From assembly GCA_049322655.1 (NCBI GenBank), contig JBMORP010000006.1:576410-640409 (forward strand): a stretch of 64,000 nt of DNA. The letters run 5' to 3'. A program made the translations under genes and the position numbers. Positions 3,477-52,669 of the stretch are shown piece by piece. Position 1 is the first letter of the stretch. The number at the start of each line of letters is the position of its first letter. This stretch comes from Patescibacteria group bacterium (lineage in GTDB: Bacteria > Patescibacteriota > Microgenomatia > UBA1400 > PJMF01). The notes below the pieces were generated by a model. That model made no database searches and was not told where the DNA came from. It saw nothing but the letters and a program-made list of their open reading frames with translations.

Positions 3477-5720
3477 ATGATACAATGCAGTTTATCTATG
3501 GATAGTCGTTACGATCATCAACACCAAGAAAAAAAACTCTATGAAGCTTGGGAAAAAGCTGGCGTTTTCAGTCCTAAAGAGAACTCAAGTAGTAAAACTT
3601 TTACTATTATGATGCCTCCTCCCAATGCTAATGACCCATTACACATTGGCCACGCAATGTTTTTGGCTATAGAGGACATTTTGATTCGTTATCATCGCAT
3701 GCTTGGAGATGAAACCCTTTGGCTGCCAGGTACAGATCATGCTGGTATAGAGACTCAATTTGTTTTCGAAAAAAAACTTAAGAAAAAGGGTCAAAGTCGT
3801 TTTCAATTTGACCGAGATACTCTTTACCAAATGATTTGGGACTATGTTCAAGAGAACTCTGATGTAGCTGTTGACCAGATGAAAAAAATTGGTGCCAGTG
3901 CAGATTGGTCGCGCTTCACTTTTATGCTTGATAAACAAGTGGTCAAACAAGTTTTAGAAACTTTTATTAAGCTGCATCAAGATGAATTACTTTATCGTGA
4001 TGAACAACTCGTTAATTACTGCACCCACTGTGGTACTAGTTTTTCAGAGTTAGAAGTTGTTTATCAAGATCAAGTTTCACCCCTCTACTACGTCAGATAT
4101 CCCCTAGTTAAAAATCCTAATGAGTTTCTTACTGTCGCTACAGTTAGGCCAGAACCAATTTTTGCTGACACTCACTTGGCTGTTAACCCCACAGATAAAA
4201 AACACCAACATTTAATCGGCGAAAAAGTTTTAAACCCACTAACCAATGAAGAAATGGAAATTATTGGGGATGAGTTTGTCGATCCAGAGTTTGGTACCGG
4301 AATTGTTAAACTTACTCCAGCTCATGATGCTAACGACTTTCAAGTTGCTCAAAAAAATAATTTACCAATGTACCATGCCATCAACCTTGAAGGAAAAATC
4401 ACTGCTAATGGGGGTAAATATGCTGGTATGAAAGTTAAAGCTGCTAGGGATGAAGTGGTTAAAGATTTACAAACAAAAGATCTGATCGAAAAAATTAACG
4501 AAAAATATACCAATAGAGTTGGCACTTGTTATAGATGTAAAAGACCGCTTGAACCACTCCTTCTTCCCCAGTTTTTTATCAGAGTTAAACAATTAACCAC
4601 CCCAATTTTGGAGGACTTAAAAAACAAAAAGTTCACTGTTCATGGTGCTGGCTTCGATAAAATCTTAAAACACTGGCTAGAAAACCTCAAAGACTGGAAT
4701 ATCTCCCGCCAAATAGTCTGGGGAATCAGAATTCCTGTTTGGTATGATGTTGAAAAAAATCCAGACATTATTGTTAGTTTTTTAAATGAAAATCAAGAAA
4801 AAGTTACAGGAAAACTAGCTGAGTTTTTAACCAAAGGAATAAGCCTAGAAACAATTAACCAAGGTTTACAAGAATTGAGAGCACCTATTGGTGCAAAATT
4901 CACTGTTAGTATTGATTCTCCAGGAAAAAACTTTATTCAAGAAACAGATACTTTTGATACTTGGTTTAGCTCTGCTCAATGGCCTGTAACAACGCTAAGA
5001 AAAAATCCCCAAGATTTTACCAAATTCTACCCTACTCAAGTCATGGAAACTGGTTATGACATTTTACCCTTTTGGGTGATGAGAATGTTAATGATGGGTA
5101 AATATATTACCGGCAAATTACCCTTTAATGACATTTATCTCCACGGCCTAGTTAGAGATCAAAAAGGCCAAAAAATGAGTAAAAGTAAGGGCAATGTAGT
5201 CAATCCACTGGACATAGCCGAAAAATACGGATCTGACGCTCTTAGGATGGCTTTAGTTATCAGATCATCTGCCGGTTTAGATAAATCTGTAGGCGAACCA
5301 GACTTTAAAGCAATGAGAAACTTTTCCAATAAAATCTGGAATGCTTCTAGATTCATTCTTGAATACTTAGATTTATCTCAAGAAGGAAATCCAAAAAACA
5401 ACCAAGAATTTATTGACAAATTAAACCAAGCAACTAAACAAATCACTGCTAATTTAGAAAAATTTCAGCTTGGACTTGCAGCAGAGACAGTTTATAACGA
5501 GTTTTGGCATTGGTTTTGTGACGAACAAATTGAACTAGCTAAGACTGGTAAGGTTGGTGGCAAACAGTTGATTACTGGACTGAAAACATTTTTAGGTCTT
5601 CTCCACCCGTTTGTCCCTTTTGTCACTGAAGCAGTCTGGCAAGAGTTGAAAAATAAGCAACTAAGCACAACAAAGTTGCTAATTACCTCTTCCTGGCCAA
5701 CTAAAAACTTGGCAGAATAA
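3477..5720 (+). CDS. valS: valyl-tRNA synthetase (short form lacking the C-terminal coiled coil)
   Basis: Class I aaRS signature PPPNANDPLHIGHA (HIGH) and KMSKSKGN (KMSKS). N-terminal region is collinear with ValS (TLWLPGTDHAGIETQ). Confidence 0.75.
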   Translation: MIQCSLSMDSRYDHQHQEKKLYEAWEKAGVFSPKENSSSKTFTIMMPPPNANDPLHIGHAMFLAIEDILIRYHRMLGDETLWLPGTDHAGIETQFVFEKKLKKKGQSRFQFDRDTLYQMIWDYVQENSDVAVDQMKKIGASADWSRFTFMLDKQVVKQVLETFIKLHQDELLYRDEQLVNYCTHCGTSFSELEVVYQDQVSPLYYVRYPLVKNPNEFLTVATVRPEPIFADTHLAVNPTDKKHQHLIGEKVLNPLTNEEMEIIGDEFVDPEFGTGIVKLTPAHDANDFQVAQKNNLPMYHAINLEGKITANGGKYAGMKVKAARDEVVKDLQTKDLIEKINEKYTNRVGTCYRCKRPLEPLLLPQFFIRVKQLTTPILEDLKNKKFTVHGAGFDKILKHWLENLKDWNISRQIVWGIRIPVWYDVEKNPDIIVSFLNENQEKVTGKLAEFLTKGISLETINQGLQELRAPIGAKFTVSIDSPGKNFIQETDTFDTWFSSAQWPVTTLRKNPQDFTKFYPTQVMETGYDILPFWVMRMLMMGKYITGKLPFNDIYLHGLVRDQKGQKMSKSKGNVVNPLDIAEKYGSDALRMALVIRSSAGLDKSVGEPDFKAMRNFSNKIWNASRFILEYLDLSQEGNPKNNQEFIDKLNQATKQITANLEKFQLGLAAETVYNEFWHWFCDEQIELAKTGKVGGKQLITGLKTFLGLLHPFVPFVTEAVWQELKNKQLSTTKLLITSSWPTKNLAE

Positions 5721-47260: not shown

Positions 47261-49474
47261 TTATTGTCTTTTTTTGGAGTATCTCTCTCGGCTAACTTTA
47301 ATTACTTTATCTTTATTTTGGTTGCTGCTTTTGGCTAAGCCCAAAGTTCTAGCTGGGAAAGGTTTACTAATTACGTTATCAATAGAGATGCGGTTAATAA
47401 TTTGGTATTTTTCTAGGGAAACTAGTTCCTCTGGGGTGTAGTGTTCACCAAACTCTCGGCTAAAAACTTGGGCGTCTTCTGAACCCATGACAAAACTAGC
47501 CGTACTTCCACAGTTACCAAAAATAGCTTTTTGTACTTCTTCTGGTATTTGGGCAATGTATTGGTTGGCCAAAGTAAGGTTGAGTCTATATTTTCTAGCC
47601 TCTGACAAAATCTTGATAAAAGCTTCAGTGGCAAAATTTTGAAACTCATCAACATAAAGGTAAAAATCTCGACGCTGTTCTTCTTGAATTTGAACTCTAG
47701 TCATGGCTGCTAGTTGAATCTTGGTAATCATCATCGCACCCAAGAGAGTAGCATTATCTTCACCCAATTTTCCTTGAGAAAGATTGACCAATAAAATCTT
47801 GCCTTCATTCATAATGTCTTCAATACTAAAAGAGCTTTTATGAGCATTGACCACGTTACGAATCAACGGAGAAGAAGTAAACTGACCAACTTTATTGAGA
47901 ATTGAGGCAATTGATTCGGTTCTCAATCTATCTTGCATCTTGTTATATTCATCCACCCAGTAACTTTTCAGAATTGGATCTTCTAGGTTTTCAACGTATC
48001 TATCTCTAAATTTTTTATTAGTTAACAGTTCCAAAATGTCAGATAGTCTGGCATTTTCACTAGTCAATAGTGTAAGCAAGGCATTTCTTAAGATATATTC
48101 AAGACGAGGACCCCAAGAATAGCCATAAAGTTTTTGAAAAATCGAGATAATACCAGAAGCGATTAGCTCTCGATGGACGACGTTTTTACCTTCAAAAAGA
48201 TTGATTTGCACTGTTCTTTCTGGATCACTTGGGTCAAAATAGATAACATCGTTAATTCTTCTAGATGGAATGTAGTTAAGTAAGGTCTCGACTAGGTCTC
48301 CATGAGGATCAATAACACACATTCCCTCATTGTTTTTTAAGTCATTAATAGCCATGTTGGCCAGCAGGGTGGATTTACCAGTTCCGGTTTTACCAATCAC
48401 ATACATGTGTCTGCGACGATCTGCTCGTTTGAGGCCATATTTAACAGCCTTATTTTTATAAGTAGTTTCAGCAAACACATTAGTGCTGTTTTTAAGTTCT
48501 GGGTCAGTGTCTCTGGTAATAATTGGTAAATTTTCTGGTGGCTCACCAAGTAGATTTTTACCCCAGGCAATATTAGGAATAACCTCCAAGTTTTTGTTGG
48601 GGAGGTGATAGAGGGTGGCTAGTTCATCAAGAGTTAAATGAACTTTTTTAGATCTAAAAAATGAGCGGGCTTGCATCATTTTCAAGAAATGCTCTTTGAA
48701 AAAATAGTTTTTGCGTAAAACTAAAGTATTACCTTCACTTTTTGAAATCGAGTTATACGTGGCAGCCAGTGTTTCTAAAATCAAGTCGCTTCTTTGGGCG
48801 GAGTCTGTTCTAACTGCCAGTTTAATACCTACTTTTAAGGCTTCTTTTTTTAGCTTTTCTTCAATCAAAGCTTTTTGTCGGTGATAACCACTGGTCGCAT
48901 CATCGATAGATTTACCCTGAATTTCTCGCCAACCTTTGTTTTTCCAGTTATCTGTATCTGGTGAAACTAAGTACTGAAGGTGAACAATGTCACTTGGTTG
49001 GCTTTTTGATAGACTGGCCAAGAGAGAAGCAAGTGGATCAACATTTTTAAAATCCAAGTAGGTTTTCATTGGTAAATATTCTGCATTAGTCAAACCAAGA
49101 CTACCAGTTTTGACAAAGGAAGGGGTAATTAACTTGCCGTTTAGGTCGAAAAAATCGACAATGGGGTCTTCTGGATTCTCTGTAATTAAAGCTTCTGGGT
49201 AGCTGGCAATAATTGCTCCTCTGACATATTCCATTAATCTAACGGGCAAATACATTAGAAACTTAATTGTTTGATCCCTGACAAATATTTCTAGACTAAA
49301 TGACTCATTTTTACTAATTAGTTGGTAAAAAATATTATTATGTAGTTTGGGTAGAGTAGAAAGAAATTGAACCGCTGTCTCTGGGGTGTGTTCGGCATCT
49401 CTACCTGTTCTAATTTCTAAAATAGTATGTGGAGTCATAATGATAATTTCCATTATATACAGATATCTGTTCAA
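47261..49474 (-). CDS. TraD/VirD4-like (FtsK/HerA superfamily) ATPase, candidate type IV coupling protein; exact start uncertain (ATGs at 49474, 49453, 49438)
   Basis: Walker A YVIGKTGTGKSTLLANMAIND followed by VIDPHGDL, and Walker B YLYVDEFQNFAT ~190 aa downstream, as in conjugative coupling proteins. Confidence 0.5.
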   Translation of the reverse strand: MNRYLYIMEIIIMTPHTILEIRTGRDAEHTPETAVQFLSTLPKLHNNIFYQLISKNESFSLEIFVRDQTIKFLMYLPVRLMEYVRGAIIASYPEALITENPEDPIVDFFDLNGKLITPSFVKTGSLGLTNAEYLPMKTYLDFKNVDPLASLLASLSKSQPSDIVHLQYLVSPDTDNWKNKGWREIQGKSIDDATSGYHRQKALIEEKLKKEALKVGIKLAVRTDSAQRSDLILETLAATYNSISKSEGNTLVLRKNYFFKEHFLKMMQARSFFRSKKVHLTLDELATLYHLPNKNLEVIPNIAWGKNLLGEPPENLPIITRDTDPELKNSTNVFAETTYKNKAVKYGLKRADRRRHMYVIGKTGTGKSTLLANMAINDLKNNEGMCVIDPHGDLVETLLNYIPSRRINDVIYFDPSDPERTVQINLFEGKNVVHRELIASGIISIFQKLYGYSWGPRLEYILRNALLTLLTSENARLSDILELLTNKKFRDRYVENLEDPILKSYWVDEYNKMQDRLRTESIASILNKVGQFTSSPLIRNVVNAHKSSFSIEDIMNEGKILLVNLSQGKLGEDNATLLGAMMITKIQLAAMTRVQIQEEQRRDFYLYVDEFQNFATEAFIKILSEARKYRLNLTLANQYIAQIPEEVQKAIFGNCGSTASFVMGSEDAQVFSREFGEHYTPEELVSLEKYQIINRISIDNVISKPFPARTLGLAKSSNQNKDKVIKVSRERYSKKRQ

Positions 49475-49494
49475 GGTGGAGAGAGAAGACTTGA

Positions 49495-49785
49495 CTAAAA
49501 TTCTTCTAATGGAACAACTGTTGTGCCAGCAACATGGTGAATTTCATTCATGATTTTGGCAAACATGATAGCTCTCAAACTGTTTGCTCCGGCAAATAAA
49601 CCAATAGTAGTGGCCTGGTCAAACATTTTTTCAGCAGTTGCCTTGTTTTCGTTAAGGGTGATAGGAGCTAATTCATTTTCTCCCAGCAGATCAATCACTA
49701 GTAAAGAAAAAACTCCATTTTCTAATAGTAGTTGTAGTTGAGTAGTTTCATTAGCATTTTCAGTTTTGATGATTTCTTTAGTCAT
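49495..49785 (-). CDS. hypothetical small protein
   Basis: 96-aa ORF; a TATAAT box lies ~14 nt upstream of its ATG on the minus strand. Confidence 0.35.
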   Translation of the reverse strand: MTKEIIKTENANETTQLQLLLENGVFSLLVIDLLGENELAPITLNENKATAEKMFDQATTIGLFAGANSLRAIMFAKIMNEIHHVAGTTVVPLEEF

Positions 49786-50385
49786 ATTAAAGAAGATTAT
49801 AGCTTATTTTAGTTTTTACACCAGTTTCCCCCAATCATGTTTTTAATGTAGATAACTTTTTAAATTAGTCTGGTTTTGTTTTAAAAAATATTATATAAGA
49901 TATCTAAAAAAATAAGTATTTATTATTATAAGATGCAAAAATTTGACAAAATGGTCCCAAAAGAGTTATAGTAAATTTGTTTTAAAAATAATAAGTAAAA
50001 GAAGCCGGTTTTTCACTGAAGGACTGAATAATTTAGTGATTCACAGGTTGGAAGATTCTTTGAAAAGTTGTTTTTAAGGCATTAAAAATGGAAGAATAAA
50101 TTCTCTAACAATTTTCCTCAAGATGGAAAACTAGAGATAAAAAAATCCACCGCAATTTGTAGATTCCAGAACATGGCAGGCAGAACTACAAACACGGTGG
50201 ATAAGGGTGCAAGATTACCGCTGGAAGACCACGAATAATATTGCTCTTTGATTCTCACTTGCCATTACGGTTTGTGAGAGTTGATCTGAACATAGCATTT
50301 TCGTCGGGTGGGGTAAACTAGATATTAATAATTGTTAATGTTCATTACTATATATTAATGTTCAGTCTTGCTGTATAATACGGGT

Positions 50386-50463
50386 TAGATTCGTGAAAGC
50401 GTTAAGTTGAAGTTCGGTTGGTTGGGCAGGCTACCGAACTTCAGCTTAGCGCTTTTTTTATTT
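50386..50463 (+). ncRNA. candidate small RNA: extended -10 promoter (TGcTGTATAAT 50369-50379) followed ~25 nt later by a 20-bp hairpin and a T-tract
   Basis: Stem GCGTTAAGTTGAAGTTCGGT (50399-50418) / ACCGAACTTCAGCTTAGCGC (50433-50452) with 2 mismatches, then TTTTTTTATTT. No ORF. A TTAATGTTCA direct repeat sits upstream (50355-50364 and 50347-50356 region). Confidence 0.3.
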
Positions 50464-50587
50464 GCCAAATAATTCCCAAAACGTCCTTATAACTTGTATA
50501 TTTTGATGCTTTTTGCTATAATTTGTAGGATTTGAGTCGTTTTCAAAGATTTTTGCAATCTCTAGAAAAAACTCAAGTTTTAGTTCT

Positions 50588-51010
50588 TTAACATGGGGAA
50601 AAACTTATTTTCTTAAGATTTTATTTTTTGGTTTTCTAGTGGATAACCCAGATTTAGAGATGGTGTCTTTAGATCTGGGTTATTCTGACTCTAGCAATGG
50701 AGGAGGAAGCCTAAATTTAATGTTCGTAAGGAGATAAGCATGGATTACGACAAAAAGTTTGAACGATGGTTGACGAGCGGAGTGAACTCAATTCCTCAGC
50801 TCAGGCGCAAAATTAAGCGACACCTCAGAAACACTCGCAATTCTGACTATCGGGCAATCATGAAACGATTGACCTGGGATGAGGAATATGCTGAGGACTT
50901 TCTTGGTTTAGCAAAATAGCGCCACCAACAAAATGAAGTATCTCCAAAGATGGAGGTGCGGGTTTGCCCGCACCTCCAATCTCCTGGCTAAAAACCAGGC
51001 CCCATGTTAA
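50588..51010 (+). mobile_element. inverted-repeat-bounded cassette-like unit 1 (423 bp) carrying a 59-aa basic ORF
   Basis: Perfect 11-bp terminal inverted repeats TTAACATGGGG (50588-50598) / CCCCATGTTAA (51000-51010); internal 13-bp-arm palindrome 50641-50685; GC-rich hairpin GGAGGTGCGGG-ttt-GCCCGCACCTCC 50951-50978. Confidence 0.45.
50740..50919 (+). CDS. small basic protein (59 aa) inside cassette unit 1
   Basis: AAGGAG SD 5 nt upstream of the ATG. Translation is MDYDKKFERWLTSGVNSIPQLRRKIKRHLRNTRNSDYRAIMKRLTWDEEYAEDFLGLAK. Just under the ORF-track size cutoff. Confidence 0.4.
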   Translation: MDYDKKFERWLTSGVNSIPQLRRKIKRHLRNTRNSDYRAIMKRLTWDEEYAEDFLGLAK

Positions 51011-51150
51011 TTTTTAAACCTGAATTAAACTAATTTTAGGCTCATATATTTTCTTATTTGACATATTGTGATATAATATGAATCTGTTAAATTTCTTCAA
51101 TTTGTATTTGCTACAAATTAACAAGATTTTTAACAACTAATTTTTGCTCG

Positions 51151-51728
51151 TTAACATGGGAAAATAGTTTTTAGGATACTTTTTGAATTGTTGTTAATAT
51201 TTGTATTTTTTAGATAGTCCCGGTTTGAAGAACTAAGTTCTTTTGACCGGGATTATCTATGAGCCTCTGCGTCAGCAGGGGAATATAGATGTCTACACTA
51301 TTTCAAGGAGTTCCCTGTGAACAATAAAGTTGATTACCGCTCTTTCATGAGCAACCTGCTCGATGGCGTCGAAACCGTCGAAGGACTGCGCGCCAAGGTC
51401 CGCCCGATGCTCGAAGACCGCAAGTCGGCTGACTACGTCAAGCCCGGCACCGAATGCACCTGTGATTGTGGTCGCGACCTCCGCGCCCACCTTCAGGACA
51501 TCCTGGACAATGATGACTTCGCTCAGCATCTGGTCGTCGGCCTGTCGTTGGCTGACCTTCTCGGCATGCTGGGGCTGTCCGCCTCTGGGCCTGGCCCGGA
51601 GACCATCATGACCGGCGTCATCATCATCGGCGACGAAGAAGACTAACCAACAACGCAGGCACAACCAACATGGCGCACGGGCTTGCCCGTGCGCCATCCT
51701 TGATGTTCACTAACTATTCCCATGTTAA
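51151..51728 (+). mobile_element. inverted-repeat-bounded cassette-like unit 2 (578 bp) carrying a high-GC 109-aa ORF
   Basis: Terminal inverted repeats (CG)TTAACATGGG 51151-51160 / CCCATGTTAA(CG) 51719-51728; internal palindrome TAGATAGTCCCGGT...ACCGGGATTATCTA 51211-51259; hairpin ATGGCGCACGGGC..GCCCGTGCGCCAT 51670-51697. The layout is collinear with unit 1. Confidence 0.45.
51317..51646 (+). CDS. hypothetical acidic protein (109 aa) with high-GC, GC3-biased codon usage, probably horizontally acquired
   Basis: GTG start with AAGGAG SD 6 nt upstream. Third codon positions are almost all G/C (GTC GAA ACC GTC GAA GGA CTG CGC GCC AAG GTC CGC CCG ...), unlike every other gene in the window. The overlapping ORFs 51293-51697(-) and 51363-51611(+) are high-GC artefacts. 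Confidence 0.5.
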   Translation: MNNKVDYRSFMSNLLDGVETVEGLRAKVRPMLEDRKSADYVKPGTECTCDCGRDLRAHLQDILDNDDFAQHLVVGLSLADLLGMLGLSASGPGPETIMTGVIIIGDEED

Positions 51729-51782
51729 CGACATCTACATATTTTGTAGTTTAAATTTCCCATTTTTTTATCCTATAACATT

Positions 51783-51817
51783 GACAAAACTGATGTTTTT
51801 TGTTATAATAACAGATC
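51783..51817 (+). promoter_or_regulatory. sigma70-like promoter for the sortase gene (near-leaderless transcript)
   Basis: TTGACA - 17 nt - TATAAT with a perfect consensus; the ATG at 51821 lies only 11 nt after the -10 box and there is no SD. Confidence 0.5.
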
Positions 51818-51820
51818 ATT

Positions 51821-52669
51821 ATGCAAGCTAATAACCAGACTAAATCAGCCAATTTTAGCCTTAAATCACTCAAAAGAGTGTTGGTTGGTGATGCTGGTTG
51901 GACTGATGGGCAAAAAGCTCAGCGCTTGCTTCAGCAAAAACAAAATAAAAGCCAAAAGAGACAAGCTCCTCAACGAGTAAATATTTTCAAGGCTTTTCTC
52001 AAAGCTGTGTTAAATTTATTGATTATTTTAAGTTTTGGTGGCTTAGTTTTTTGGCAAGGGCCAAAGCTCTTTTATACTATTTTTCCTCAAGAATCAGCCA
52101 ACCAACTAGTTCAAGCTGAGGAACTAACTGGTAACTTTGCCTTAGATTTTAGTATCTTGGACGAAGAAGCTACCAAAAGAAAAGTTTTACCTTCTCAAAG
52201 AAGCTACAAACCTGCTTATAATCCTGATTTGCCAGCTGGCAATTGGTTGATTATTCCTCGAATTGGAGTGAGATCAGAATTACAAAGAACCGAAAACTAT
52301 GAAGAGGCTTTACAGGTTGGTCTCTGGTGGGTACCAGATTTTGGTGAAGTAGGTGATCGATCTAAACCAATGATTGTCGCTGGCCATCGTTATGGTTTTG
52401 ACTGGTGGTGGAAAGATGATTATTGGAAATACCACTCTTTTTACTCTTTGCCAGACTTAGAACCAGGGGATAGAATTGAGATAATTGCTGATCAACGTAA
52501 ATGGATTTATGAGATTTATGCTGGTGAAGAAGGTGAGCAAATCACTGATTACCAGGCAGATTTAATTCTTTATACCTGCAAACATTTGGATTCACCAATT
52601 AGAATCTTTCGTTATGCTAAGTTGGTTGAGATCAAAGAAGAAAGTGCCCTGGGTATTTTGAGTAAATAA
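51821..52669 (+). CDS. sortase-family transpeptidase (membrane-anchored)
   Basis: N-terminal TM anchor; catalytic-core motifs LIIPRIGV, AGHRYG (His), LILYTCK (TLxTC Cys) and a downstream Arg (RIFRYAK). Confidence 0.65.
   Translation: MQANNQTKSANFSLKSLKRVLVGDAGWTDGQKAQRLLQQKQNKSQKRQAPQRVNIFKAFLKAVLNLLIILSFGGLVFWQGPKLFYTIFPQESANQLVQAEELTGNFALDFSILDEEATKRKVLPSQRSYKPAYNPDLPAGNWLIIPRIGVRSELQRTENYEEALQVGLWWVPDFGEVGDRSKPMIVAGHRYGFDWWWKDDYWKYHSFYSLPDLEPGDRIEIIADQRKWIYEIYAGEEGEQITDYQADLILYTCKHLDSPIRIFRYAKLVEIKEESALGILSK

Follow-up and report, generated by a model that had tools for sequence, protein, structure and literature searches.

What fills a 2-kb interval with hardly any recognizable coding sequence in a stretch of bacterial DNA that is otherwise packed with genes? 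The question arises at positions 49786–51820 of a 64,000-nucleotide (nt) stretch of contig JBMORP010000006.1 from a Patescibacteria group bacterium, which we call the window. Patescibacteria (the candidate phyla radiation, CPR) are mostly uncultured epibionts with tiny, dense genomes, and to our knowledge next to nothing is known of how they regulate genes at the RNA level or of the genes that vary between strains. An initial annotation, made from the letters of the DNA and a list of its reading frames, described the interval as a gene-poor island between a VirD4-like ATPase gene and a sortase gene, and considered it more typical of an integration hotspot or a regulatory RNA locus than of a CPR chromosomal backbone. 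The window has a GC content of 36.9%, and open reading frames (ORFs) of at least 100 amino acids (aa), selected greedily over the 64 kb, cover 90.5% of it. Positions 49475–51292 form the sole gap of 400 nt or more without such an ORF, which bears out the description of a gene-poor island. Only two ORFs within 49786–51820 are credible: ORF1 (50740–50919, 59 aa) and ORF2 (51317–51646, 109 aa). Comparison with related genomes indicates that the island is a conserved backbone gene for a small RNA (sRNA) followed by a tandem array of two portable modules, or cassettes. The explanation we favor, with about as much doubt as conviction, is that these modules produce translationally locked mRNAs for hypervariable small proteins.

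Results

Relatives share one part of the island and differ in the other

Scanning genomes with the VirD4-like protein identified 15 loci, including one in a Candidatus Pacebacteria metagenome-assembled genome (MAG); related loci are numbered here with the prefix L. The gene order radA, VirD4, orf96, island, sortase, HAD, rho is kept in L001, L002 and L003, whose VirD4 proteins are 99%, 89% and 87% identical in amino acid sequence to that of the window. The neighbors annotated by Pfam in L101 and L105 are radA, the VirD4-like gene, a small ORF, sortase, HAD, rho, LysM/M23 and Obg. The island measures 2052 bp in L001, 756 bp in L002 and about 1.4 kb in L003, and consists of one constant and one variable part. 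Between the conserved flanks, radA-VirD4-orf96 on one side and sortase-HAD-rho on the other, the number of cassettes varies from 0 to 2: none in L002, one in L003, L070 and L080, and two in the window, L001, L024, L101 and L105. At least 12 metagenomes or MAGs yielded the same cassette architecture in independent assemblies.

Two simpler accounts of the island were looked for. The relatives contain no conserved protein-coding gene at this site that is merely frameshifted in the window. Nor does a known housekeeping RNA explain the region: Rfam 15 at the gathering threshold gives no match in the whole window, its E-value mode gives only chance matches to miRNAs and snoRNAs, and ARAGORN detects no tRNA or tmRNA gene in the window.

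Two cassettes with a common layout

The two cassettes proposed by the initial annotation are real and homologous to each other. They lie downstream of the sRNA terminator, unit 1 at about 50494–51010 and unit 2 at about 51050–51731, and can be aligned with one another. Each unit contains, in order, a TG-extended −10 element, a leader of about 60 nt with a small hairpin, a 5′ arm, an anti-Shine-Dalgarno (anti-SD) segment, hairpins HP1 and HP2, the Shine-Dalgarno (SD) sequence AAGGAG, the ORF, hairpins HP3 and HP4, and a 3′ arm. The 10-mer TTAACATGGG occurs exactly four times in the 64 kb, always at a cassette end. For comparison we collected 15 distinct complete cassettes from genomes and metagenomes. 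Our own scan located the TG-extended −10 element 64–73 nt upstream of the 5′ arm in 12 of the 15.

Cassette 1 begins with its promoter and leader (50494–50587, + strand, as are all cassette features below). The −35 element is TTGTAT at 50494–50499 and the extended −10 is TGC-TATAAT at 50514–50522, ending 65 nt before the arm. This promoter is homologous to that of the sortase gene, and the cassette-free locus L002 has a single copy, the sortase one. The 5′ arm, TTAACATGGGG (50588–50598), pairs with the 3′ arm, CCCCATGTTAA (51000–51010). The anti-SD, CUUAUUUUCUU (50604–50614), has as its predicted partner AAGGAGAUAAG at 50728–50738 in the minimum free energy (MFE) fold, with a probability of the SD being unpaired, P(SD unpaired), of 0.00. 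HP1 (50643–50683; inverted repeat I9) has 18 bp, including G.U pairs that are possible only on the + strand, and its folding energy is −41.7 kcal/mol on the + strand versus −18.9 on the − strand. HP2 (50689–50702) is weak in the window copy, with 5 bp; its equivalents elsewhere have 7–8 bp and co-vary (CCUCUGC/GCAGGGG, CUCUCAC/GUGAGAG, CUCUUCCC/GGGAAGAG). The SD and ORF1 span 50728–50919, with AAGGAG at 50728–50733 and the ORF at 50740–50919. The 3′ untranslated region (UTR; 50941–50999) carries HP3, a GC hairpin at 50951–50978 with no U-run after it, and HP4 at 50983–50999.

Cassette 2 repeats this layout. Its promoter and leader (51050–51147) contain TGA-TATAAT at 51069–51077 and a leader hairpin at 51089–51129 (I18). 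The region is 97.8% identical to that of L001 and accompanies the same cassette type in L003. The 5′ arm, TCGTTAACATGGGAA (51148–51162), forms 15 perfect base pairs with the 3′ arm, TTCCCATGTTAACGA (51717–51731; I12, 100% complementary). The anti-SD, ACUUUUUGAA (51178–51187), is predicted to pair with UUCAAGGAGU at 51302–51311, again with P(SD unpaired) of 0.00. HP1 (51212–51258) and HP2 (51264–51281), which together occupy 51212–51281, are supported by covariation; HP1 of cassette 2 in L001 has a different sequence and forms the same hairpin. The segment 51305–51646 comprises AAGGAG (51305–51310) and ORF2, from a GTG start at 51317 to 51646. HP3 (51670–51697) opens the 3′ segment that ends with the arm (51670–51731).

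Some further features of the cassettes were noted. In unit-1-type cassettes the anti-SD-like motif AUCUCC is directly repeated on either side of HP3 (50941–50948 and 50978–50985 in the window). In the HP3 stem, GGAGGUG/CACCUCC, one strand resembles an SD and the other copies the 16S anti-SD, which permits alternative pairings with the real SD. A 134-aa ORF antisense to cassette 2 (51293–51697) is probably a by-product of high GC content.

Covariation supports folding of the cassette transcripts

The two arms are perfectly complementary over 11–15 bp in all 15 cassettes. They occur in 10 versions and every change is compensated, for example CATGGGG/CCCCATG, CATGAGAA/TTCTCATG, CATGGAAA/TTTCCATG and CATAGGAG/CTCCTATG. 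In the last of these, found in L105, even the CATG core has changed jointly on both sides. The arms are closed in the MFE fold of every full-length cassette RNA. We then scored covariation in an alignment (A7) of constructs in which the 5′ UTR is joined to the 3′ UTR; it was made with plain MAFFT, with no structure imposed. With this alignment as input, RNAalifold finds the closing helix together with HP1 and HP3, and 29 of the 45 pairs have changed on both sides (5/12 in the closing helix, 13/21 in HP1 and 11/12 in HP3). In A7, 95.4% of cells are paired, compared with 36–44% in slid controls, and none of 500 shuffles reaches this value. The 5′ UTR folds much better as the + RNA than as its reverse complement in 15/15 cassettes (−57.2 versus −22.9 kcal/mol for unit 1 of the window). 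This strand asymmetry points to a structure of the sense-strand RNA.

The anti-SD is a variable segment immediately 3′ of the 5′ arm. Other pairings with the SD region include UGACUCCUGA:UCAAGGAGUCA and AUUCUCC:GGAGAAU, and the triplet that follows GGAG co-varies with the triplet that precedes CUCC. P(SD unpaired) is at most 0.32 in 13 of the 15 cassettes. The anti-SD:SD duplex has a mean energy of −6.9 kcal/mol within its own cassette and −4.8 kcal/mol with swapped partners, a difference not reached in any of 10,000 permutations.

Copy number, relocation and allele replacement

The cassettes are gained and lost at a fixed site, and one has been found elsewhere. L104 (4740–5380 of JGI contig Ga0119967_10000005, 144 kb) holds a complete cassette, with promoter, arms, HP1–HP3 and a 95-aa ORF (P0020), in an unrelated context. 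Around it are many small ORFs of unknown function, with PLDc_2, HTH_3 and ThsB-TIR genes nearby, and the setting may be a defence or mobile island. No copy of the sRNA lies within 5 kb. The promoter of the L104 copy contains the CCTATAACATTGAC element, of which every other locus has one copy, in the promoter of the sortase gene or of a cassette. Thus, the promoter travels with the moving unit, whose ends are not the arms.

Two other loci deserve mention. L046 (5252–5450), identical in sequence to L093, has no cassette and retains a lone right arm with its flank, TTTTTTTCATGTTAACGAATTC, just upstream of the sortase promoter; this is probably the scar of a cassette deletion. In L001, the SD of cassette 2 (3680–3985, − strand) is followed by an ORF of only 10 codons (MNTVSLQSFV, then stop), and the long ORF begins later in another frame. 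The homologous cassette in L105 (5635–6026) has one intact ORF of 130 aa, and its counterpart in L001 may carry a frameshift or be a pseudogene. Units are probably added to and lost from the array through recombination between the repeated promoters and scaffolds. The promoter of cassette 1 duplicates that of the sortase gene.

The coding and non-coding parts of the cassettes differ sharply in conservation. Between the window and L001, nucleotide identity is 90% for VirD4, 92% for the sortase gene and 95% for the sRNA core. It is 98% for the cassette 2 promoter and leader and 92% for the cassette 1 5′ UTR, compared with 52% for ORF1 and 40% for ORF2. The non-coding scaffold as a whole is 92–100% identical to that of the nearest relative, with stretches of 50–100 nt at 100%. 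Because the scaffold is more similar than the neighboring genes while the ORFs retain only 40–52% identity, we conclude that the scaffold is the more constrained and that whole ORF alleles are exchanged. The base composition of ORF2 (GC 0.59; 0.75 at third codon positions, GC3; 0.52 at positions 1 and 2) stands against an AT-rich scaffold and a GC3 of 0.30–0.63 in the other alleles, and suggests that this allele was imported from a GC-richer genome.

These data qualify the proposal of an integration hotspot or regulatory RNA locus, both halves of which were partly right. Cassette content does vary between conserved flanks. No integrase or recombinase lies nearby, however, the empty locus L002 contains no attachment site and no target-site duplication is seen, and the left half of the island, the sRNA gene, is not an insertion.

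A family of small, variable proteins

The two tiny ORFs recognized at the outset are real genes of a conserved but very variable family. ORF1 encodes a protein with an isoelectric point of 9.9 and four short helices (AlphaFold2, AF2; mean pLDDT 85.8). The ORF2 product is also predicted to be helical (pLDDT 74.6), and both AF2 models are compact. The unit 1 and unit 2 proteins form one family, with the shared pattern F..WLL.GV.SV..LR.KI ... YAE.LLGL; unit-2-type proteins have an additional Cys-containing insert and a C-terminal extension. Single-sequence searches with ORF1 and ORF2 returned only the query itself. The family is tiny: 5.8 billion clusters contain 8 matching proteins, and 1.84 billion representatives contain about 18 matching clusters. 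Every context of a family member that we examined is the radA-rho locus, except L104. The proteins are 56–130 aa long and hydrophilic with no transmembrane segment; the grand average of hydropathy is negative in all full-length members but one, and the maximum 19-residue Kyte-Doolittle value does not exceed 1.56 except in the window ORF2 (1.76). These appear to be soluble four-helix proteins of a lineage-restricted family.

Two members, P0009 (L100, 672–1289) and P0010, are head-to-tail fusions of two cassette-2-type domains in one ORF of about 200 aa. Subsets of the family (P0006 and P0012–P0015; P0001, P0008 and P0017) share motifs at the extreme C-terminus, either ..GE.FG[FW][ILV]-COOH or a hydrophobic strand (VIIIG, VMIIG, IFVIG) with an acidic tail. 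Such motifs could be docking or secretion signals. A profile search of the PDB gave a borderline match (E = 0.003) to 6ROC/6QO1, a 'putative surface protein'; papers on Borrelia surface lipoproteins cite 6QO1. We judged the match to be a compositional similarity between helices. The proteins were also compared with VirB2-like pilins, a candidate that we rejected on the grounds that they are hydrophilic and lack a signal peptide.

A structured RNA gene between radA and rho

The constant part of the island is the sRNA gene (about 49979–50460, + strand). It has a predicted promoter, an intrinsic terminator and a covarying structure, as expected of an independently transcribed sRNA gene. The sRNA candidate of the initial annotation is present. 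The promoter (49943–49972) consists of TTGACA at 49943–49948 and TATAGT at 49967–49972 with a spacer of 18 nt, and scores 11/12 in our scan. TTGACA..TATAGT is invariant in the window, L001, L002 and L003; in the distant loci L005 and L007, the similar hexamers TTGACT/TTGACG..TATACT can be read upstream of the sRNA. The 5′ part of the RNA (49979–50142) varies between genomes and is much shorter in L003 (alignment A2).

Downstream of this region the sRNA is rich in hairpins, and its core folds with a z-score of −5.7. P1 (50145–50202), a nested stem of 8+7 bp with the loop AACAUGG at 50170–50176, contains the hairpin CCACCGCAATTTGTAG..CTACAAACACGGTGG singled out by the initial annotation. It is restricted to the subclade nearest the window, and is also present in the cassette-free L002, L028, L047, L052, L064 and L090. 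H2 (50209–50244; GCAAGAUUACCGCUGG-AAGA-CCACGAAUAAUAUUGC) is kept throughout the clade. H3 (50250–50282) combines a conserved stem, UUCUCAC/GUGAGAG, with a loop that differs across all four close relatives; one of its pairs has changed on both sides (AU to UA). A region containing GUAAAC lies in the core between H3 and the terminal hairpin. The terminal hairpin and terminator (50396–50462) consist of a 23-bp stem (inverted repeat I2, 91% complementary) with the conserved loop UGGUUGGGCAGGCU, followed by seven U. The sequence TGTATAAT is conserved at 50369–50381 and at the equivalent positions of L001–L003, L028, L047, L052 and L090, about 35–45 nt before the terminal hairpin. The terminal hairpin might therefore also exist as an RNA of its own, about 85 nt long.

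Related sRNAs are widespread in this lineage. Searches with nhmmer detect the sRNA even in relatives whose VirD4 shares only 60–66% identity. A scan of metagenomes with the terminal-loop motif gave 84 loci, and in total 93 loci of related Patescibacteria carry related sequences. The invariance of the loop UGGUUGGGCAGGCU is partly due to search bias, as the loop was the query; the independent nhmmer matches carry the same loop. We scored the pairs of H2 and the terminal hairpin in 58 distinct sequences (alignment A6). In this alignment 96.7% of cells are paired, compared with 34–48% in slid controls; 22 of the 35 pairs have changed on both sides, and none of 500 shuffles reaches the observed value. 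The ten pairs of H2 are 99–100% paired and seven have changed on both sides; in the terminal hairpin 15 of 25 have done so, with 95.5% of cells paired. The many G.U pairs and the U-run fix the strand of the RNA as +.

In every informative locus the sRNA lies between radA (with or without VirD4, reading away) and rho (with or without sortase and HAD, downstream), which makes radA ← RNA → rho the ancestral arrangement. By its synteny and covariation the sRNA gene is an ancestral, conserved part of the backbone of a Pacebacteria/Woesebacteria-like lineage rather than an insertion, and is the most conserved element of the locus. No Rfam family matches the sRNA in the window or in 12 related loci. 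The motif was not found in the viral contigs of IMG/VR, and literature matches to the loop motif were limited to unrelated primers.

Flanking genes and promoters

The island is bounded on the left by a gene for a TrwB/VirD4-type coupling ATPase (47261–49474, − strand; Pfam TrwB_AAD_bind, DUF87 and TraG-D_C) and by orf96, a 96-aa ORF upstream of it on the same strand and in the same operon. On the right it is bounded by the sortase gene (51821–52669, + strand). The region 49786–49978 is a divergent promoter region, with the orf96-VirD4 promoter and a short leader on the − strand and the sRNA promoter on the + strand. The sortase promoter (51772–51820, + strand; CCTATAACATTGACA) has its −35 element at 51781–51786 and TGT-TATAAT extending to 51809. 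It matches at 12/12 positions in the promoter scan, with the TG, and the −10 element ends only 11 nt before the ATG. With the two elements read directly at 50514–50522 and 51069–51077, this one (51781–51809, by scan) bears out the initial report of at least three TGnTATAAT-type promoters. The sequence CCTATAAYATTGAC occurs once per locus examined and is also the promoter of the relocated cassette in L104.

The orf96-VirD4 operon (49786–49800, −) and the sortase gene (51804–51823, +) both have TATAAT about 11 nt before the ATG and no recognizable SD. This spacing suggests that their mRNAs are leaderless or nearly so, unlike the cassettes, whose leaders would be about 210–235 nt.

One earlier claim was not supported. 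A degenerate copy of a G-rich intergenic motif had been noted at 49817–49845; allowing up to three mismatches, GGGGGAAACTGGTG has 4 matches where 3.5 are expected by chance, and we discarded the motif as a repeat family.

Discussion

A model for the cassettes

In the model that we favor, each module would be transcribed from its own promoter into an mRNA of about 0.5–0.65 kb that folds into a closed, translationally inert form. The helix of 11–15 bp would tie the 5′ UTR to the 3′ UTR, and the anti-SD just inside the 5′ arm would pair with the SD, with HP1 and HP2 enclosed by this pairing and HP3 and HP4 lying in the 3′ UTR. Translation would then require unlocking, either by nuclease trimming of one arm or by an RNA or protein that opens the helix, as for hok and aapA. 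In these two mRNAs the lock consists of a 5′-3′ long-distance interaction together with anti-SD sequestration, and the full-length RNA becomes active only once its 3′ end has been trimmed (PMC5416894, PMC6733600). For the cassettes, we infer from the folds that translation would be blocked at the RNA level, and from the alleles what the proteins may do. Wholesale exchange of alleles on a constant scaffold suggests a strain-specific, conflict-type function, such as a toxin-like protein, an immunity protein or an effector of host interaction.

Several observations weigh against this model. Masking of the SD is predicted only weakly in 2 of the 15 cassettes, and in 3 cassettes the predicted partner of the SD is the 3′ AUCUCC element instead of the 5′ anti-SD. 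The closing helix is nearly devoid of G.U pairs (1 of 180 cells), which leaves some room for a role at the DNA level, and the folding energy of the 3′ UTR does not differ between the strands in the way that of the 5′ UTR does. Neither HP3 nor the 3′ arm is followed by a U-run, which allows for read-through from one unit into the next. The predicted transcript starts about 60 nt before the 5′ arm, whereas in hok and aapA the arm is at the 5′ end. The proteins offer no functional clue: Pfam, PHROGs and PADLOC give nothing significant, and Foldseek searches of the PDB and BFVD with both AF2 models give no match with E < 0.7. Finally, the 5′ and 3′ ends of the transcripts, their processing and the translational block are all read from sequence.

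Whether the sRNA acts on the cassettes is a separate question. The P1 loop displays AACAUGG, a sequence that also forms the core of the 5′ arm and shows 7 nt of complementarity to each 3′ arm; in the window the arms lie at 50588–50598, 51000–51010, 51148–51162 and 51717–51731. We treat this as a lead only, since P1 is also present in cassette-free genomes and the L104 copy has no sRNA nearby. A type IV secretion system (T4SS) is reported to be essential for epibiotic growth in Patescibacteria (PMC12857230). A role of the proteins as secreted effectors is conceivable from the adjacent VirD4-type ATPase and the C-terminal motifs. If both ideas were combined, the locus would be an arsenal for host interaction: dormant locked mRNAs would encode effectors or toxins, the P1 loop would invade the closing helix and unlock it upon a signal such as host contact, and the proteins would be substrates of the VirD4/T4SS machinery. 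We regard this full scenario as very improbable.

Alternative explanations

One alternative is that the cassettes are true type I toxin-antitoxin (TA) modules, in which the protein would be a toxin, the locked mRNA would be dormant, and an antisense or trans-acting RNA, possibly the sRNA, would serve as antitoxin. The closing helix, the anti-SD and the additional CU-rich AUCUCC element in the 3′ UTR parallel hok and aapA (PMC5416894, PMC6733600); the first two, 5′-3′ closure and sequestration of the SD by the anti-SD, are predicted here with support from covariation. The modules are also multi-copy, variable in number and portable, and the P1 loop offers a potential site of contact with every 3′ arm. 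The proteins argue otherwise: type I toxins are small hydrophobic or membrane peptides, typically below 60 aa and with a transmembrane helix, whereas those encoded here are hydrophilic, 56–130 aa long and free of transmembrane segments, and allele diversity this extreme would be unusual for such toxins. For an antisense RNA, there is no consistently positioned promoter on the − strand, and 6 of the 15 cassettes have none scoring at least 9/12; the sRNA matches the arms over only 7 nt, its P1 hairpin occurs where no cassettes exist, and it is absent within 5 kb of the L104 copy. We therefore do not classify the cassettes as type I TA modules, for want of a hydrophobic peptide and a conserved antisense promoter, and consider it unlikely that they are true members of that class. 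Another possibility is that the arms and hairpins serve only mRNA processing and stability, with the closing helix as an RNase III-type site at which single mRNAs are released from a read-through transcript, the hairpins protecting the ends, and translation uncontrolled. Each cistron is flanked precisely by its helix, the stable GC hairpin HP3 is of a type that can stop 3′ exonucleases, and read-through from cassette 1 into cassette 2 and the sortase gene is plausible with no intrinsic terminator after HP3 or the 3′ arm. Each unit nevertheless has its own strong promoter, a helix of 11–15 bp is short for RNase III, and a pure stability role does not require that the anti-SD and the SD co-vary. 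This explanation also seems rather unlikely to us.

The arms might instead act in DNA, as inverted-repeat recombination sites of an invertible gene switch or as the terminal inverted repeats (TIRs) of a non-autonomous mobile element or an integron-like cassette, which would account for the variable copy number. They are perfect inverted repeats with almost no G.T pairs and a palindromic core, GTTAAC, and the units are present or absent at one syntenic site, with one copy elsewhere and a lone right arm in L046/L093. However, the segment that is gained, lost or moved extends about 130 nt beyond the 5′ arm to take in the promoter and leader, and all 15 cassettes have the same orientation relative to the promoter. 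The annotation of L101 and L105 shows no recombinase, integrase or transposase within about 5 kb, the arms are not flanked by a target-site duplication, and the 64-kb window contains no further cassette copies. Ten co-varying arm versions on nearly identical scaffolds are difficult to fit to a single recombinase. Because the unit extends past the arms, the orientation is uniform, no recombinase is near and the 5′ UTR folds strand-specifically, we disfavor DNA-level readings and judge them improbable. Decayed or artefactual sequence, that is, pseudogene remnants or a chimeric assembly behind the GC-rich ORF2, was suggested by the composition of this ORF (59% GC, GC3 0.75, in a window of 37% GC) and by a first protein search in which it matched only itself. 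Independent assemblies of at least 12 metagenomes or MAGs show the architecture, the family motifs are kept in intact ORFs, and the AT-rich scaffold continues on both sides of the GC-rich ORF and is shared with L001. The comparative data essentially refute an artefact, which is hardly credible any longer.

With these alternatives weighed, the best-supported reading of the locus remains a new RNA family together with a variant of the fold-back-locked mRNA module that carries hypervariable cargo. The sRNA would be a structured RNA not described before, with wide conservation, invariant loop motifs and a fixed place between radA and rho. The cassettes, whose covariation is unusually clean, appear to be the first modules with a fold-back 'locked mRNA' beyond the classical type I toxin families, and their products would be soluble rather than membrane proteins. 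Alleles swapped wholesale on an RNA scaffold more conserved than the neighboring housekeeping genes are the signature of a locus of conflict or host specificity.

Comparison with known systems

Among mobile elements and sources of diversity, several candidates were compared with the cassettes and disfavored or rejected. A TIR element or miniature inverted-repeat transposable element does not fit, as the arms are not the termini of the moving unit and no duplication occurs at them. An inverton would have inverted repeats, which are present, but the orientation is the same in 15 of 15 cassettes from independent assemblies and no invertase is found nearby in L101 or L105. No HUH transposase or reverse transcriptase lies nearby, as would be expected for the hairpin ends of IS200/IS605-like elements or the a1/a2 repeats of retrons, and the cassettes have an ORF inside. 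A diversity-generating retroelement is not indicated, as variation includes insertions and deletions over the whole ORF and there is no template repeat. Nine matches to the 5′-arm pattern in viral contigs all lack the partner arm and were attributed to chance.

Integron arrays are similar in being tandem single-ORF units whose number and content vary between close relatives, with GTTAAC-type cores in bounds that resemble imperfect palindromes. Integrons have IntI, attI and a common Pc promoter, and their promoterless cassettes are bounded by compact attC sites of 57–141 bp with R″/R′ GTTRRRY. In contrast, the cassettes described here lack attI and a common Pc promoter, and no integrase is among the annotated neighbors in L101 or L105; they have their own promoters, repeats 417–654 nt apart that enclose the ORF, and a 5′ UTR with RNA-like strand specificity. 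The RNase III stems of rRNA precursors and phage T7 early mRNAs are likewise helices formed from sequences that flank a unit in a possibly longer transcript; the cassettes differ from them in their short helices (11–15 bp), their own promoters and the co-varying anti-SD:SD pair.

The closest parallels are hok/Sok of plasmid R1 and aapA/IsoA of Helicobacter pylori. Like these, each cassette is a self-contained small gene with its own promoter, predicted 5′-3′ closure and a CU-rich anti-SD; extra conserved hairpins, coupled covariation as the main evidence, and multiple or variable copies are also common to both (PMC5416894, PMC6733600). The hok and aapA products are hydrophobic peptides of 30–50 aa, whereas those of the cassettes are predicted to be soluble, helical and 56–130 aa long, and no antisense promoter was found in a consistent place. 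The cassette 5′ arm lies about 60 nt inside the transcript, and the main anti-SD is in the 5′ UTR rather than at the 3′ end. The cassettes are further distinguished by hypervariable ORFs on a conserved scaffold and by their host, a Patescibacterium. The sRNA, in turn, resembles the orphan structured non-coding RNAs of the class that includes OLE, raiA and HEARO: it is lineage-restricted, syntenic and supported by covariation, is a few hundred nucleotides long and has invariant loops. It differs from that class in having no Rfam 15 family, in belonging to a single lineage of Patescibacteria, and in its constant position between radA and rho.

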